Source: Octopus vulgaris (lineage: Eukaryota). Taken from it: 64,000 nt of DNA. Where the stretch lies: NCBI GenBank assembly GCA_951406725.2, contig OX597821.1:77376001-77440000 (forward strand), given 5' to 3'. This document shows positions 2,743 through 44,955 of the stretch, in pieces (the stretch's first letter is position 1; each line of letters begins with the position of its first letter). The notes under the pieces were generated by a model, which saw only the letters and a program-made list of their open reading frames with translations, was not told where the DNA came from and made no database searches. Position numbers and translations under genes: made by a program.

Positions 2743-4009
2743 AAAAGAACGAGATTCAGAGAGCATTAAAATAAAGGAAGCAAGAGGAGTGCTATAATTT
2801 CCTGAAAAATACACATTTTTGAAAGAAATTTTACAGAGATAAGATTTCGATAGATTAGTTTGCGGTTATGTTGAGAAATTTAGAAAAATAATAACATAAT
2901 AAATGAAAAAAATTGTCTTAACTAATTTTATTTCAAAATAAATAATACTCTCTTAAAAATTAGTATTCAATCCACCACTTTATATAAGCAGCAAGAAAGT
3001 TGATAAAAGGTAAATTCCGATTATTGTACGCATGCGCGCTTGAGTGAAAACAGGATATTGTAATCACTCCTCTTTGTTTGCGCGTTTGCAAAATTATTGG
3101 AAAACGGCTGAACGGATTTTCACCAAATTTAGCAGAAATACTCATTGGGTGAGTGGCTCGAAATGATGAACATTTGGTTTATTTCCAAACATACATAAAT
3201 ACATACATAGATATGTGACTCTGTATTATATTGTGTGCGTGTGTGTGTATGAATGCGCGCGTGTGTGTGTGTGTGTGTGTGTACAATGATGGATCCGAGG
3301 GTTTCTTTTATTTACGAATTGATTTCTTAATTTCACCAGAGTATAAATACCTATAATGGTGAAACACTTCTCAAATTCTATGCAATATTTTCTATAAGTA
3401 TTTCATTTTGTTCACTTTCTTTTTCATATGAATCGACCCTCGTCTGCGTGTGTATTGATCATGGTATGCCAATGCGTGTAGACATAGATACATCCATCCA
3501 TCCATACATACATACATACATACATACATACATACATACATACATACATACATACATACATACATACATACATAGACATGCGACTCAGTGTGTGTGTCTA
3601 AAGTGATGGATTCGAGTGTTTTGTTTATTTATGAGTTGATTTCTTGATTTCACTAGAATATAAGTACCTATAATGGCGATACTTATAAAGAAGTTAATTC
3701 AGTTCAATAAAAAAGCAACGCATTGTTAGCCACATAAAATCTGCGGTAAAAGTTTATCTTCAAGCAGGGTAAGCATCTCTGCTTTTTTTTTTTTCATTCT
3801 TTATGTTACCCAAGATATCAAAAGTATATTTCTAAAGTGACCAATCATTTAGTAGATTTATAATAGGAGATTTTCAAAATTAAAAAGAAAATTAAATTTC
3901 ATTCACATTTTTCTTGGCAAAATATTATTTTTTCCAAAAAATAAAATATAGATTTATACTATAAAATGTTCTATAACCAAAAGTAAAAAATTGAATTCTA
4001 ATAATGGAT

Positions 4010-5648: not shown

Positions 5649-5735
<87 letters not shown>

Positions 5736-23615: not shown

Positions 23616-24098
<483 letters not shown>

Positions 24099-24177
24099 GT
24101 ATAATTTTACCCTCATGGGCTATCCTTTACTGGAAAGCAATACTCTCGTATTGCATTACTTTTTTCATATATATATA

Positions 24178-24558
24178 TCTCTCTATATAAACGGCAGTTT
24201 GTCTGTGCGTGTTTCTGTGTGTCTGTTTGCTTGTACCCTCACCCTGACCACGGCTTTCAACCGATTCTGATGAAACTTGACACACACATAGCCCAATGTC
24301 ATAATTCAAAACTAACGCAGCGAAAATTTTGAAAAGTTCCCCCAGTTCTGAAAAAAATCGATAAATTCGACATGGGGTCGAGAATCAGAAACACAAACCG
24401 CAAACTGTCTAGGGGACGCAACTCCACCTTTTATAACTAAAAAAAAAACTTACCATAATTTTTTTCCATTTTTTTGTTATTTTTTGGCTATAACTCTCTA
24501 AAAATGCTTTATAGTTATTTCCCTTACAAACCTGAGCAACGCCGGGCGATACTGCTAG
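24178..24558 (+). mobile_element. Non-autonomous Helitron-like element
   Basis: 5' end A|TCTCTCTATATAAA; 3' GC hairpin CCTGAGCAACGCCGGG followed by CTAG|T (24555-24558); no TSD. Confidence 0.75.
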
Positions 24559-24905
24559 TTTATATATAAAAGTGAAGTTGTGTGTCTGTCTCCTACAATT
24601 TAGATTCCTAACTACTCCCACATTTTCCGGTGCAGTGTAACCAAAAGCGGGTATCTTATAGTCGTGATTCATATCGAGCCCTTCCGGGTATTAGCGCGCG
24701 TCTACGATGAGTCTACGATTTTAAAAAAAATTACCATCATGTTTTTCCATTTTAATGCATTTTTTTCGCTATTATATAAGGGAACTAACTCTCTAAAAAT
24801 GTCTACGATGAATCAACAATTTTTAAAAAATTTACGATAATTTTTTTTTCCAATTTTAATGCATTTTTTTGCTATTTTTTGGCTATAAATCTCTGAAAAT
24901 GCTTA
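24559..24905 (+). mobile_element. Second, 3'-truncated Helitron-like element directly after the first
   Basis: Begins TTTATATATAAAAGTGAAG and shares the TTACCAT..TTTTTCCATTTT..AACTCTCTAAAAATG block with 24178-24558; cut by SINE A. Confidence 0.55.
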
Positions 24906-24918
24906 CATTCTTCTTCTT

Positions 24919-25309
24919 CTTGTTTCAGTCATTTGACTGCGGCCATGCTGGAGCACCGCCTTTAGTCGAGCAAATTGACCCCAGGACTTATTCTTTGTAA
25001 GCCCAGTACTTATTCTATCGGTCTCTTTTGCCGAACCGCTAAGTAACGGGGACGTAACCACACCAGCATCGGTTGTCAAGCAATGCTAGGGGGACAAACA
25101 CAGACACACAAACACACACATATACATATATACGCATACATATATACGACAGGCTTCTTTCAATTTCCGTCTACCAAATCCACTCACAAGTCATTGGTCG
25201 GCCCGGGGCTATAGTAGAAGACACTTGCCCAAGATGTCACGCAGTGGGACTGAACCCCGAACCATGTGGTTGGTTAGCAAGCTACTTACCACACAGCCAC
25301 TCCTGCGCC
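24919..25309 (-). mobile_element. SINE family A, full length
   Basis: Complete head-to-tail match to 11752-12144 in reverse orientation. Confidence 0.88.
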
Positions 25310-25476
25310 ATTATATATATATATTCTTTCCCAATTTCGCAGTGTGTATGTGCATAAATAAATGTATTTACGGTAAATGTATTTACGGTAATTGCTTAGG
25401 TTATAATATTTCATTAATATATGTTTTGATGAACGTCAGATCTGATAACAAGATTGCTTTACACCATTCAAGGCCT

Positions 25477-28400
25477 CAGAGATCAAAGAGGGGTGCCGAC
25501 AGAGATCAAAGAGGGATGCACAGAGATCAAAGAGGGATGCACAGAGATCAAAGGGGGTGCCGACAGAGATCAAAGGGGGTGCCGACAGAGATCAAAGAGG
25601 GGTGCCGACAGAGATCAAAGAGGGTGCCGAAAGAGATCAAAGAGGGGTATCGACAGAGATAAATGAGGGTGCTGACAGAGATCAAAGAGGGTACCGACAG
25701 AGATCAATTGGGGTGCCGACAGAAATCAAAGAGAGGTGCCGACAGAGATCAAAGGGGTGCCGACAGAGATCAAAGGGGGTGCCGACAGAGACCAAAGAGG
25801 GTGCCGACAGAGATCAAAGAGGGGTGCCGACAGAGATCAAAGAGGGGTGCCGACAGAGATCAAAGGGGGTGCCGACAGAGATCAAAGAGGGTGCCGACAG
25901 AGATCAAAGGGGGGTGGCGACAGAGATCAAAGAGGGGTGCCGACAGAGATCAAAGAGGGGTGCCGACAGAGATCAAAGAGGGGTGCCGACAGAGATCAAA
26001 GGGAGTGCCGACAGAGATCAAAGGGGTGCCGACAGAGATCAAAGAGGGGTGCCGACAGAGATCAAAGGGGGTGCCGACAGAGATCAAAGAGGGGTGCCGA
26101 CAGAGATCAAAGAGGGGTGCCGACAGAGATCAAAGGGGGTGCCGACAGAGATCAAAGGGGTGTCGACAGAGATCAAAGGGATGCCGACAGAGATCAAAGA
26201 GGGGTGCCGACAGAGATCAAAGAGGGATGCACAGAGATCAAAGGGGGTGCCGACAGAGATCAAAGAGGGGTGCCGACAGAGATCAAAGAGGGTGCCGATA
26301 GAGATCAAAGAAGGGTGCCGACAGAGATCAAAGAGGGTGCCGACAGAGATCAAAGAGGGGTGCCGACAGAGATCAAGGAGGGATGCACAGAGATCAAAGG
26401 GAGTGCCGACAGAGATCAAAGGGGGTGCCGACAGAGATCAAAGAGGGGTGCCGACAGCAATCAAAGAGGGTGCCGACAGAGATCAAAGAGGGGTACCGAC
26501 AGAGATCAAAGAGGGGTGCCGACAGGAATCAAAGAAGGTGCCGACAGAGATCAAAGAGGGTGCCGACAGAGATCAAAGAGGGGTGCCGACAGAGATCAAA
26601 TGGGGTGCCGACAGAGATCAAAGAGGATGCACAGAGATCAAAGGGGTGCTGACAGAGATCAAAGGGGGTGCCGACAGAGATCAAAGAGGGGTGCCGACAG
26701 AGATCAAAGAGGGGTGCCGACAGAGATCAAAGAGAGGTGCCGACAGAGATCAAAGGGGATGCACAGAGATCAAAGGGGTGCTGACAGAGATCAAAGGGGG
26801 TGCCGACAGAGATCACAGAGGGTGCCGACAGAGATCAAAGACGGGTGCCGACAGAGATCAAAGAGGGTACCGACAGAGATCAATGGGGGTGCCGACAGAA
26901 ATCAAAGAGGTGCCGACAGAGATCAAAGAGGGTGCCGACAGAGATCAAAGAGGGTATCGACAGAGATCAAAGAGGGTGCCGACAGAGATCAAAGAGGGTA
27001 CCGACAGAGATCAATGGGGGTGCCGACAGAAATCAAAGAGAGGTGCCGACAGAGATCAAAGGGGTGCCGACAGAGATCAAAGGGGGTGCCAACAGAGACC
27101 AAAGAGAGTGCCGACAGAGATCAAAGAGGGGTGCCGACAGAGATCAAAAAGGGTGCCGACAGAGATCAAAAAGGGTGCCGACAGAGATCAAAGGGGGTGC
27201 CGACAGAGATCAAAGAGGGATGCCGACAGAGATCAAAGGGGGTGCCGACAGAGATCAAAGAGGGGTGTCGACAGAGATCAAAGAGGGGTGCCGACAGAGA
27301 TAAAAGAGGGGTGCCGACAGAGATCAAAGAAGGGTGCCGACAAGGATCAAAGAGGGTGCCGACAAAGATCAATGGGGTGCCGACAGAGATCAAAGGGAGT
27401 GCCGACAGAGATCAAAGAGGGTGCCGACAGAGATCAAAGGGGGTTCCGACTGAGATCAAAGAGGGGTGCCGACAGAGATCAAAGAGAGGTGCCGACAGAG
27501 ATCAAAAGGGGTGCCGACAGAGATCAAAGGGGTGCCGACAGAGATCAAAGGGGTGCCGACAGAGATCACAGAGGGTGCCGACAGAGATCAAAGACGGGTG
27601 CCGACAGAGATCAAAGAGGGTACCGACAGAGATCAATGGGGGTGCCGACAGAAATCAAAGAGAGGTGCCGACAGAGATCAAAGAGGGTGCCGAAAGAGAT
27701 CAAAGAGGGGTATCGACAGAGATAAAAGAGGGTGCCGACAGAGATCAAAGAGGGTACCGACAGAGATCAAAGGGGGTGCCGACAGAGATCAAAGAGGGGT
27801 GCCGACAGAGATCAAAGAGGGGTGCCGACAGAGATCAAAGGGGGTGCCGACAGAGATCAAAGAGAGTGCCGACATAGATCAAAGAGGGGTGCCGACAGAG
27901 ATCAAAAAGGGTGCCGACAGAGATCAAAGGGGGTGCCGACAGAGATCAAAGGGGTGCCGACAGAGATCAAAGAGGGATGCACAGAGATCAAAGGGGGTGC
28001 CGACAGAGATCAAATGGGGTGTCGACAGAGATCAAAGAGGGGTGCCGAAAGATATCAAAGAGGGGTGCCGATAGAGATCAAAGAAGGGTGCCGACAAGGA
28101 TCAAAGAGGGTGCCGACAAAGATCAATGGGGTGCCGACAGAGATCAAAGGGAGTGCCGACAGAGATCAAAGAGGGTGCCGACAGAGATCAAAGGGGGTTC
28201 CGACTGAGATCAAAGAGGGGTGCCGACAGAGATCAAAGATGGGTGCCGAGTGAGACCAAAGGGTTGCCGAAAGGGATCAAAGAGGGGTGCCGACAGAGAT
28301 CAAAGGAGGTACCGACAGAGATCAAAGGGGATGCCGACATAGATCAAATAGGGGTGCCGACAGAGATCAAAGAGGGGTGCCGACAGAGATCAAAGGGGGT

Positions 28401-28502
28401 GCCGACAGAGATCAAAGAGGGGTGTCGACAGATATCAAAGGGGGTGTCGACAGAGATCAAAGTGTGTGCCTAAAAAGATCAAAGATGGTGCCGAAAGAGA
28501 TC
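25477..28502. repeat. Minisatellite array 1, unit CAGAGATCAAAGAGGGGTGCCGA (19-23 bp variants)
   Basis: Direct reading of the sequence; about 135-140 units, estimated from length. Confidence 0.97.
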
Positions 28503-28629
28503 TTCCCTTACAAACCCGAGCAACGGTAAATGTATTTACGGTAATTGCTTAGGTTATAATATTTCATTAATATATGTTTTGATGAACGTCAGATCTGATA
28601 ACAAGATTGCTTTACACCATTCAAGGCCT

Positions 28630-30455
28630 CAGAGATCAAAGAGGGGTGCCGACAGAGATCAAAGAGGGATGCACAGAGATCAAAGAGGGATGCACAGAGA
28701 TCAAAGGGGGTGCCGACAGAGATCAAAGGGGGTGCCGACAGAGATCAAAGAGGGGTGCCGACAGAGATCAAAGAGGGTGCCGAAAGAGATCAAAGGGGGT
28801 ATCGACAGAGATAAATGAGGGTGCTGACAGAGATCAAAGAGGGTACCGACAGAGATCAATTGGGGTGCCGACAGAAATCAAAGAGAGGTGCCGACAGAGA
28901 GCAAAGGGGTGCCGACATAGATCAAAGAGGGGTGCCGACAGAGATCAAAGGGGGTGCCGACAGAGATCAAAGAGGGGTGCCGACAGAGATCAAAGGGGTG
29001 GCGACAGAGATCAAAGAGGGGTGCCGACAGAGATCAAAGAGGGGTGCCGACAGAGATCAAGGAGGGATGCACAGAGATCAAAGGTAGTGCCGACAGAGAT
29101 CAAAGGGGGTGCCGACAGAGATCAAAGAGGGGTGCCGACAGGAATCAAAGAAGGTGCCGACAGAGATCAAAGAGGGTGCCGACAGAGATCAAAGAGGGTG
29201 CCGACAGAGATCAAAGGGGGTGCCGACAGAGATCAAAGAGGGGTGCCGACAGAGATCAAAGGGATGCCGACAGAGATCAAAGAGGGGTGCCGACAGAGAT
29301 CAAAGAGGGATGCACAGAGATCAAAGGGGGTGCCGACAGAGATCAAAGAGGGGTGCCGAAAGATATCAAAGAGGGGTGCCGACAGAGATCAAAGAAGGGT
29401 GCCGACAAGGATCAAAGAGGGTGCCGACAGAGATCAAAGAGGGGTGCCGACAGAGATCAAGGAGGGATGCACAGAGATCAAAGGGAGTGCCGACAGAGAT
29501 CAAAGGGGGTGCCGACAGAGATCAAAGAGGGGTGCCGACAGCAATCAAAGAGGGTGCCGACAGAGATCAAAGAGGGGTTCCGACAGAGATCAAAGAGGGG
29601 TGCCGACAGGAATCAAAGAGGGTGCCGACAGAGATCAAAGAGGGGTGCCGACAGAGATCAAAGAGGGTGCCGACAGAGATCAAATGGGGTGCCGACAGAG
29701 ATCAAAGAGGATGCACAGAGATCAAAGGGGTGCTGACAGAGATCAAAGGGGGTGCCGACAGAGATCAAAGAGGGGTGCCGACAGAGATCAAAGAGGGGTG
29801 CCGACAGAGATCAAAGAGAGGTGCCGACAGAGATCAAAGGGGATGCACAGAGATCAAAGGGGTGCTGACAGAGATCAAAGGGGGTGCCGACAGAGATCAC
29901 AGAGGGTGCCGACAGAGATCAAAGACGGGTGCCGACAGAGATCAAAGAGGGTACCGACAGAGATCAATGGGGGTGCCGACAGAAATCAAAGAGAGGTGCC
30001 GACAGAGATCAAAGAGGGTGCCGAAAGAGATCAAAGAGGGGTATCGACAGAGATCAAAGAGGGTGCCGACAGAGATCAAAGAGGGTACCGACAGAGATCA
30101 AATGGGGGTGCCGACAGAAATCAAAGAGAGGTGCCGACAGAGATCAAAGAGGGGTGCCGACAGAGACCAAAGGGGTGCCAACAGAGACCAAAGAGAGTGC
30201 CGACAGAGATCAAAGAGGGGTGCCGACAGAGATCAAAAAGTGTGCCGACAGAGATCAAAAAGGGTGCCGACAGAGATCAAAGGGGATGCCGACATAGATC
30301 AAGAGGGGTGCCGACAGAGATCAAAAGGGGTGCCGACAGAGATCAAAGGGGGTGCCGACAGAGATCAAAGAGGGGTGTCGACAGATATCAAAGGGGGTGT
30401 CGACAGAGATCAAAGTGTGTGCCTAAAAAGATCAAAGATGGTGCCGAAAGAGATC
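28630..30455. repeat. Minisatellite array 2, same unit
   Basis: Direct reading of the sequence; about 80-85 units, estimated from length. Opening and closing variants are in the same order as in array 1. Confidence 0.97.
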
Positions 30456-30494
30456 TTCCCTTACAAACCCGAGCAACGCCGGGCGATACTGCTA

Positions 30495-30539
<45 letters not shown>

Positions 30540-44214: not shown

Positions 44215-44649
44215 GATATTGTAATCGTTGCTGTCGTCAACACCGTCATCACTGCCATAGTAATCGTTATCGTCATCGGCATCATCATCAACATCATCAT
44301 CATCATCATCAGCCGCCGTCATCCGCATCGTCGTCGTCGTCGTTGTCGTCGTTATTATCATCATCATAATCTGGAGTGTCATCGTCGTCAACAACATTGT
44401 CGTCATCATCGTTATCATCATCATCATCATCATCATTATCATCATTGCCGTCGTTATCCTCCTCCTCCTCCCCCTCCTCCTCATCATCATCATCGTCGCC
44501 GTCGTTATCATCATCATCATCATCGACGTCGTTATCATCATTATCATCATCATTGACGTCGTTATCATCATCATCATCATCACTGACGTCGTTATCATCA
44601 TCATCATCATCATTGACGTCGTTATCATCATCATCGACGTTGTTATCAA

Positions 44650-44700
<51 letters not shown>

Positions 44701-44711
44701 TATCATCATCG

Positions 44712-44742
<31 letters not shown>

Positions 44743-44783
44743 AATCGCCGTCGTTATCATCATCATCATTATCATCATCGTCG

Positions 44784-44821
<38 letters not shown>

Positions 44822-44955
44822 GCCGTCGTTATCATCATCATCATCATCATCATCATCGCCGTCGTTATCATCATCATCATCATCATCATCATCGTTATCA
44901 TCATCATCGCCGTCGTTATCATCATCATCACCATCGTCATCATCATCATCCATCA
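44215..44955. repeat. (ATC)n trinucleotide array with recurring GCCGTCGTT/GACGTCGTT interruptions
   Basis: Direct reading of the sequence. Confidence 0.95.

Follow-up and report, generated by a model that had tools for sequence, protein, structure and literature searches.

Does a stretch of octopus DNA that reads like a natural Wnt reporter act as one where it lies, or is it carried along as a passenger? The window analysed here, 64,000 nucleotides of Octopus vulgaris (contig OX597821.1 of assembly GCA_951406725.2, positions 77,376,001 to 77,440,000 of the forward strand), contains a tandem array at 25477-30455 whose unit, we presume, resembles the repeats of TOPflash-type reporters, and which an earlier note had described as about 220 bipartite TCF/LEF sites inside a Helitron. 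The explanation that we consider best, with a probability of roughly 0.6, is that we are looking at one copy of a 22/23-bp TCF-site minisatellite that occurs genome-wide, likely captured by the Helitron and passive cargo at this place, and that the family as a whole has likely been shaped by TCF binding. The evidence does not support a Wnt super-enhancer at this locus, and the interest lies mainly in the repeat family and less in this copy.

The array and its genome-wide family

The tandem array was confirmed over its whole extent with a period of 22 in Tandem Repeats Finder (TRF), and wrap-around alignment gave 216 complete units of 21-23 bp, close to the number estimated in the earlier note; the unit anchors, 137 and 83, correspond to two blocks with a duplication junction of 127 bp between them. 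The blocks have identical stretches of 105-329 bp in common, therefore block 2 is likely the product of an internal duplication. AGATCAAAG occurs 161 times in the array and once across the other 59 kb of the window. Its identity as a TCF/LEF site holds, as CTTTGATC agrees with the Wnt response element consensus CTTTGWWS (available text of PMC4267635), but the following G of the optimal site does not, since only 57 of the 161 sites continue into full AGATCAAAGG and 102 are followed by A (AGATCAAAGA). WWCAAAG is intact in 83% of the 216 units and the minimal RCCG in 81%, with both present in this order in 147 units. The neighbouring Helper site proposed for the array reads GCCGAC (155 occurrences), and the full Helper GCCGCC does not occur in the array at all. 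The spacer is an A/G run that varies in length, as had been noticed; the lower substitution rate expected of the motifs is not seen in this copy, as described below. Long open reading frames (ORFs) over the array, of up to 758 aa, were rejected as a by-product of stop-poor repeats whose 20-23-bp units shift the frame.

A 30-letter pattern of the repeat has 6,223 matches in the genome and a control pattern none. Regular-expression counting places 742 of these matches, about 12%, inside 15 Helitron copies and about 88% outside, so the view of the array as a property of the Helitron is not supported. At about 45 matches per fetched array, the remainder would, as a rough estimate, amount to some 100 further arrays or more. 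In the non-Helitron arrays fetched, the flanks are unrelated, the array begins and ends anywhere within the unit, and some cases are inverted. The TCF arrays span 0.1-8 kb, and none of those fetched is megabase-scale, bearing in mind that assembly gaps could hide larger ones. The Helitron is likely a late, secondary vehicle of a pre-existing satellite, which it probably acquired by capture. Telomere replacement was considered and rejected: 20 contig ends contained no TCF array, TTAGGG was present at one, and the ends do not have the look of complete telomeres. At the ends themselves, L064 3138-4000 (start of C17) has a TTAGGG array and then a 5-bp array, preceded by 15-bp repeats, and L060 (C8:1-4000) has 47.6 copies of an 84-bp repeat, 99% identical, which presumably resembles a C2H2 zinc-finger array.

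Outside the Helitron, the TCF core is selectively kept across the wider family. Our test set consisted of 21 non-Helitron arrays of at least 20 units, 2,162 units altogether, smaller arrays having been dropped. Singleton variants are not reduced in the core (12.4 per core position against 11.0 elsewhere), whereas amplified variants number 3.1 per position of GATCAAAG against 12.9 elsewhere. G/C positions of the core vary less than other G/C positions in all 21 arrays, and A/T positions of the core are less variable in 13 of the 21. Once variation is normalised by base class, none of the 22 possible windows of 8 bp varies less than GATCAAAG (positions 4-11; P=3e-5 when permuted within AT/GC class). 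Of the alleles that are common in at least three arrays, the core has 2/24 and the remainder of the unit 22/42 (P=4e-4). The Helper, with 14.5 amplified variants per position, is background-like, and its mean variation rate lies below background in 16 of the 21 arrays.

The copy in the window shows no such constraint. At its G/C positions, 5.1% of core bases, 4.9% of Helper bases and 4.3% of the others are substituted, so that the motif rates do not fall below that of the spacer, an outcome that the earlier note had named as refuting its proposal. Across all 15 Helitron copies the core stands at 5.2% against a background of 4.9% and the Helper at 6.9%, with the core below background in seven copies and the Helper in none. 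Conservation of a bipartite site, as described in the earlier note, is contradicted for the Helper, and this copy is not under detectable constraint at either motif.

A candidate factor for such units is encoded by the host, as had been assumed. The TCF gene on C6, found through PF00505 (26 HMG-box matches in the genome), has HMG-box, basic-tail and C-clamp exons (L129, L136, L138), which we take to be those of TCF from their protein motifs; the PF08347 profile had no match in the genome nor in the controls. Two similar open segments of this gene, on the minus strand (L135 and L136, C6:42.75-42.77 Mb) each cover the second half of the HMG box and the basic tail, and are possibly mutually exclusive exons that could alter DNA binding.

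Read on the CTTTG strand, each site is directly followed by a reversed Helper-like 7-mer, which is the KK0 arrangement with one mismatch, and a second Helper-like 7-mer stands 3, 4 or 5 bp before the site in 8, 50 and 55 units, respectively. From the text of PMC4154663 at hand, we infer that the preceding 7-mer would represent an AK3-5 arrangement; the same text describes AK0-6 pairs as enriched in TCF-bound fly chromatin and all seven Helper bases as needed for full activation, and GCCGAC is for that last reason likely a weak Helper. The units share with known bipartite HMG-Helper modules (PMC4154663 and PMC4267635, as far as their available parts go) the CTTTGWWS site and an adjoining minimal RCCG at a permitted spacing. 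In contrast to those natural modules, which consist of few pairs with GCCGCCR, here some 216 units carry GCCGAC, the Helper is not conserved and there is no known promoter.

The Helitron carrier and its surroundings

Non-autonomous Helitrons are recognised by a 5' TC, a 3' CTRR such as CTAG with a GC-rich hairpin close before it, insertion between A and T, captured host DNA and internal tandem repeats. The element that carries the array is a Helitron, in agreement with the earlier note, and is young and non-autonomous; it shares with known ones both termini, the A|T target, captured fragments and locally clustered copies; it differs in its cargo, a factor-site satellite that is found mostly elsewhere. 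The junction between leader and array occurs 16 times at 15 genomic places, 12 on C8 and three on C6. CTAG followed by the target T ends all 15 copies, and the A|TC start is present in 10 of the 14 copies with a located 5' end, the other four merging into (TA)n; L021, whose 5' end was not located, lies outside this count. Over the 5' part, identity among 14 copies is 97.0-99.1%; the flanks differ, and the array varies from 54 to 241 units among the copies. For the terminal hairpin a folding energy of -4.5 kcal/mol is predicted, which 42 of 200 shuffles equal.

The L017 locus matches window 24908-25472 at 93.5% and then diverges. As it has the leader together with the repeat of 24920-25309, which we take to be of a short interspersed element (SINE)-like class, and lacks the array, it is as expected for a capture donor. 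Two Helitron copies on C6 (L022 and L023, at 36.80 and 36.89 Mb) have another 3' junction, at which the array rejoins the middle of the second module; the sequence of this junction suggests template switching.

Table 1. Parts of the Helitron and of its array, in window coordinates
Feature	Position	Strand	Observations
Composite non-autonomous Helitron carrying the array	24178..30495	+	TC start after A, CTAG end before T; 15 places, differing flanks
First Helitron-type module	24178..24558	+	own hairpin; CTAG end at 24558 (read through); common to copies
Second, interrupted Helitron-type module (putative)	24559..24919	+	from sequence; high-copy in reads; L022/L023 resume the module after the array
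High-copy SINE-like repeat, probably captured together with leader	24920..25309	+	depth jump; loose ends at 24919/24920 and 25309
Low-copy leader	25310..25476	+	donor-like locus without array exists (L017, C14)
Minisatellite block 1	25477..28502	+	~136 units, 20-23 bp; TCF core GATCAAAG, A/G spacer, GCCGAC
Duplication junction	28503..28629	+	truncated Helitron 3' piece, 3-bp microhomology, second leader copy (25373-25476)
Minisatellite block 2	28630..30455	+	~82 units
Helitron 3' end	30456..30495	+	40 bp; predicted GC-rich hairpin, terminal CTAG

Just 5' of the Helitron, window 23711-24103 contains 84-nt inverted repeats, 99% complementary and 225 nt apart, that resemble a miniature inverted-repeat transposable element, and a degenerate ATC trinucleotide tract of about 228 copies lies at 44269-44955. 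Among the 138 longest non-repetitive ORFs of the window (of 227 candidates), none passes the Pfam cut-off and seven have weak hits; short exons lie outside such a scan, and the array may accordingly have an intronic position.

Intermixed minisatellites resembling other factor sites

TCF-type arrays are often interleaved with minisatellites of other monomers. The period of a 9-mer yields CATTCC-NNN-CATTCC, the spacing of a functional TEAD double motif (PMC4546604, in the part available). A 59-mer carries inverted TEAD-type sites, a 10-mer carries AACCGGTT, the 13-, 18- and 19/20-mers each carry CTA(W)4TAG, and TTCCNGGAA, TGACGT and TTTGGCGG are found in a 52-mer, a 25-mer and a 34-mer, respectively. 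We take these words to be, in the same order from the 10-mer onwards, a Grainyhead-like site, the MEF2-type motif, a STAT-type site, a cAMP response element (CRE) and an E2F-like site. Altogether, 9 of 12 patchwork families carry a motif of our panel, for which the shuffle-scaled chance is 2.5e-5 if a universe of 100 motifs is assumed.

The 9-, 13- and 52-mers also occur genome-wide, with 259, 1,797 and 146 pattern matches. A TCF array lies within about 5 kb of 6 of the 11 places found by the TEAD-like 9-mer alone, a count that omits two further 9-mer places already found through TCF; the corresponding figures are 1 of 18 for the STAT-like 52-mer, 0 of 2 for the MEF2-like 13-mer and 0 of 56 for unrelated loci (262 kb). 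A short TCF-TEAD junction pattern was tried and rejected, as three places found with it (L082, L084, L086) were without an array and a control matched equally often.

The composition of individual patchworks varies. At L079, 2380-8460, many repeats of the TEAD-like 9-mer, the Grainyhead-like 10-mer and the TCF 22-mer form a module with an inversion near 5700, the sequence of which resembles a three-input synthetic enhancer. Monomers of 13, 18 and 20 bp, each with CTA(W)4TAG, stand side by side at L163, 2027-9901, with L164 as a further case, and at L085 two 13-mer blocks (1-393 and 3335-3618) have sequence resembling a long interspersed element between them. The 52-bp repeat (L145-L162) is dispersed genome-wide and has two STAT-type halves; the central base of its first site is the commonest mismatch, in 27 of 78 one-mismatch rows among the matches listed. 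An NF-kB reading of one half (P=0.02, post hoc) is doubtful, since this half also reads as a second STAT-type site.

Next to the patchworks lies a 13-bp satellite with no named motif, whose arrays reach 17 kb and over 32 kb (L078, L100-L102 at C8:86.77-86.80 Mb, L043, L088-L089, L093-L094); it is a candidate major satellite. A 34-bp satellite (L095-L096, L154, L156), E2F-like and with other motif-like words, abuts 13-mer or 52-mer arrays.

Mechanism, alternatives and meaning

The best reading of these repeats is a transcription-factor-site satellite with predicted binding, comparable to human Satellite 3 (HSat3) and TEAD but modular and mobile. An accessible array would offer TCF many units to bind at once, and in the germ line such binding could maintain arrays in an open or transcribed state. 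Within source arrays, units whose core is intact would be amplified or retained in preference to others, and template switching would place copies of arrays inside other arrays and at new sites. Per-unit host selection in about 100 scattered arrays is implausible, therefore source arrays, or the copying itself, are the likely level at which the constraint operates, and we slightly prefer selfish spread to selection by the host on a few master loci. For the host, the repeats are predicted to serve as a platform or sink for TCF/beta-catenin, and to act as enhancers only where a copy has inserted close to a promoter. A broader version of this idea, tentative and in our judgement rather less probable than its opposite, is a mobile kit of signal-response satellites with Wnt/TCF, Hippo/TEAD, Grainyhead, MEF2, JAK-STAT and CRE monomers, which would be spread by factor binding, form multi-input patchworks like synthetic reporters and be re-deployed by Helitrons as enhancers or sinks.

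HSat3 is described as a TEAD/YAP transcription-factor platform (accessible part of PMC11526998), and the octopus repeats have in common with it tandem DNA with very many signalling-factor motifs, TEAD-type included. The HSat3 arrays described there are multi-megabase with demonstrated binding, whereas here the arrays are dispersed, mostly of 0.1-8 kb (one 13-mer array exceeds 32 kb), and binding is a prediction; moreover, there are many separate monomers, each like one or two factor sites, which interleave and move. A second parallel is provided by Caenorhabditis, where Helitrons with heat-shock elements (HSEs) are occupied by HSF-1 as well as RNA polymerase II, genes are induced and most HSEs lie in Helitrons (PMC6927752, within the text available). 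Common to both is a Helitron that brings repeated sites for a signal-responsive factor to other places in the genome; unlike in Caenorhabditis, the octopus Helitron holds only about 12% of the repeat and apparently captured an existing satellite.

Several observations weigh against the satellite reading. The arrays share ancestry, so that independent events are fewer than the counts and the Fisher P values overstate significance; L076 and L077 are one array, most arrays were found by a pattern that contains the core twice, and a common carrier of the non-Helitron arrays was not found, 17 arrays giving no collinear empty-site pair. Among the other monomers, three patchwork monomers match no nameable motif, the motif panel was picked after the repeats were seen, the value for the 59-mer in the chance calculation is the author's estimate, and the chance of at least 9 in 12 rises to 0.024 if 300 motifs are assumed as the universe. 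In the 52-mer, constraint is absent from the STAT positions (P=0.53, 654 units), only the central base of the site being highly variable; the core of the TEAD-like 9-mer is mostly A/T, and A positions are near-invariant also in the 13-mer without a named motif; about 40% of the Grainyhead-like units have a non-consensus base.

The minisatellites could instead be neutral, with factor motifs present by chance, as short repeats may match some motif, and with the low variation of GATCAAAG reflecting sequence context or a few ancestral subtypes; the chance value for 300 motifs, the STAT positions of the 52-mer and the Helitron copies without constraint fit this. Against it, the least variable window is exactly the pre-specified TCF core, where singletons are not reduced, and neither the TEAD double-motif spacing nor the several MEF2-type monomers are readily accommodated, which makes chance an unlikely account, albeit one to be taken seriously.

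That the copy in the window is a functional Helitron-borne Wnt super-enhancer, or a Groucho silencer of a neighbouring gene, is decidedly unlikely. The 147 units with intact core plus RCCG, the KK0 and putative AK3-5 Helper placement together with the fly chromatin data cited above, and the similar action of Helitron-borne HSEs in C. elegans would all agree with such a function, but neither this copy nor its 14 sisters shows motif constraint, variation of the Helper exceeds background in every one of the 15, GCCGCC is absent, the insertion is young with widely differing unit numbers among copies, and the ORF scan of the window found no recognisable neighbouring gene, short exons lying outside it.

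The kept core could also be the site of a transposase, a C2H2 zinc-finger or another HMG protein, with the patchworks as subterminal repeats of a foldback-like element. Inverted array junctions at L035, L044, L079 and L087, non-repeat flanks shared, in scattered fashion only, between some distant patchworks, and the number of HMG-box matches in the genome are compatible with this, but the surroundings of the patchworks yielded neither a shared terminus nor a coding region, and a single transposase would not account for so many unrelated monomers, each of them similar to the site of a host factor; we consider it improbable.

Vector contamination or an assembly artefact, to which the likeness to TOPflash-type reporter repeats had given some colour, can be set aside, as the repeat is present in public sequencing runs of 11 studies (seven rows with at least half of the words) and in runs under four organism labels, its 15 Helitron insertions have distinct flanks, and 72,556 plasmid records, which cover natural plasmids and do not form a vector library, gave no match. 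No RNA run is listed among these public runs. The leader-array junction is passed in contigs of X1 and X7 by 29 and 21 letters, too few for the bridging threshold, while those of X3 and X11 depart from the window sequence there; none of these is counted as evidence.

We found no report of factor-site minisatellites in cephalopods in the literature searched, which lacks most subscription papers, and the main text of a recent octopus repeat annotation (PMC13282606, as available) does not contain the words satellite, motif, enhancer or transcription factor, although its supplements may list these repeats. If the factors bind, the many monomers, dispersed arrays and polymorphic lengths would constitute a natural experiment on whether factor binding drives satellite evolution, and the HSat3-TEAD idea, so far that of a single human satellite, would come to include a set that is modular and mobile. 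The more than 2,000 TCF-like units of this Helitron family would, if bound, be enough to act as a sink or to bring new genes under Wnt control, and the repeats would then be a source, open to testing, from which regulatory change in genomes of the cephalopod type could come.

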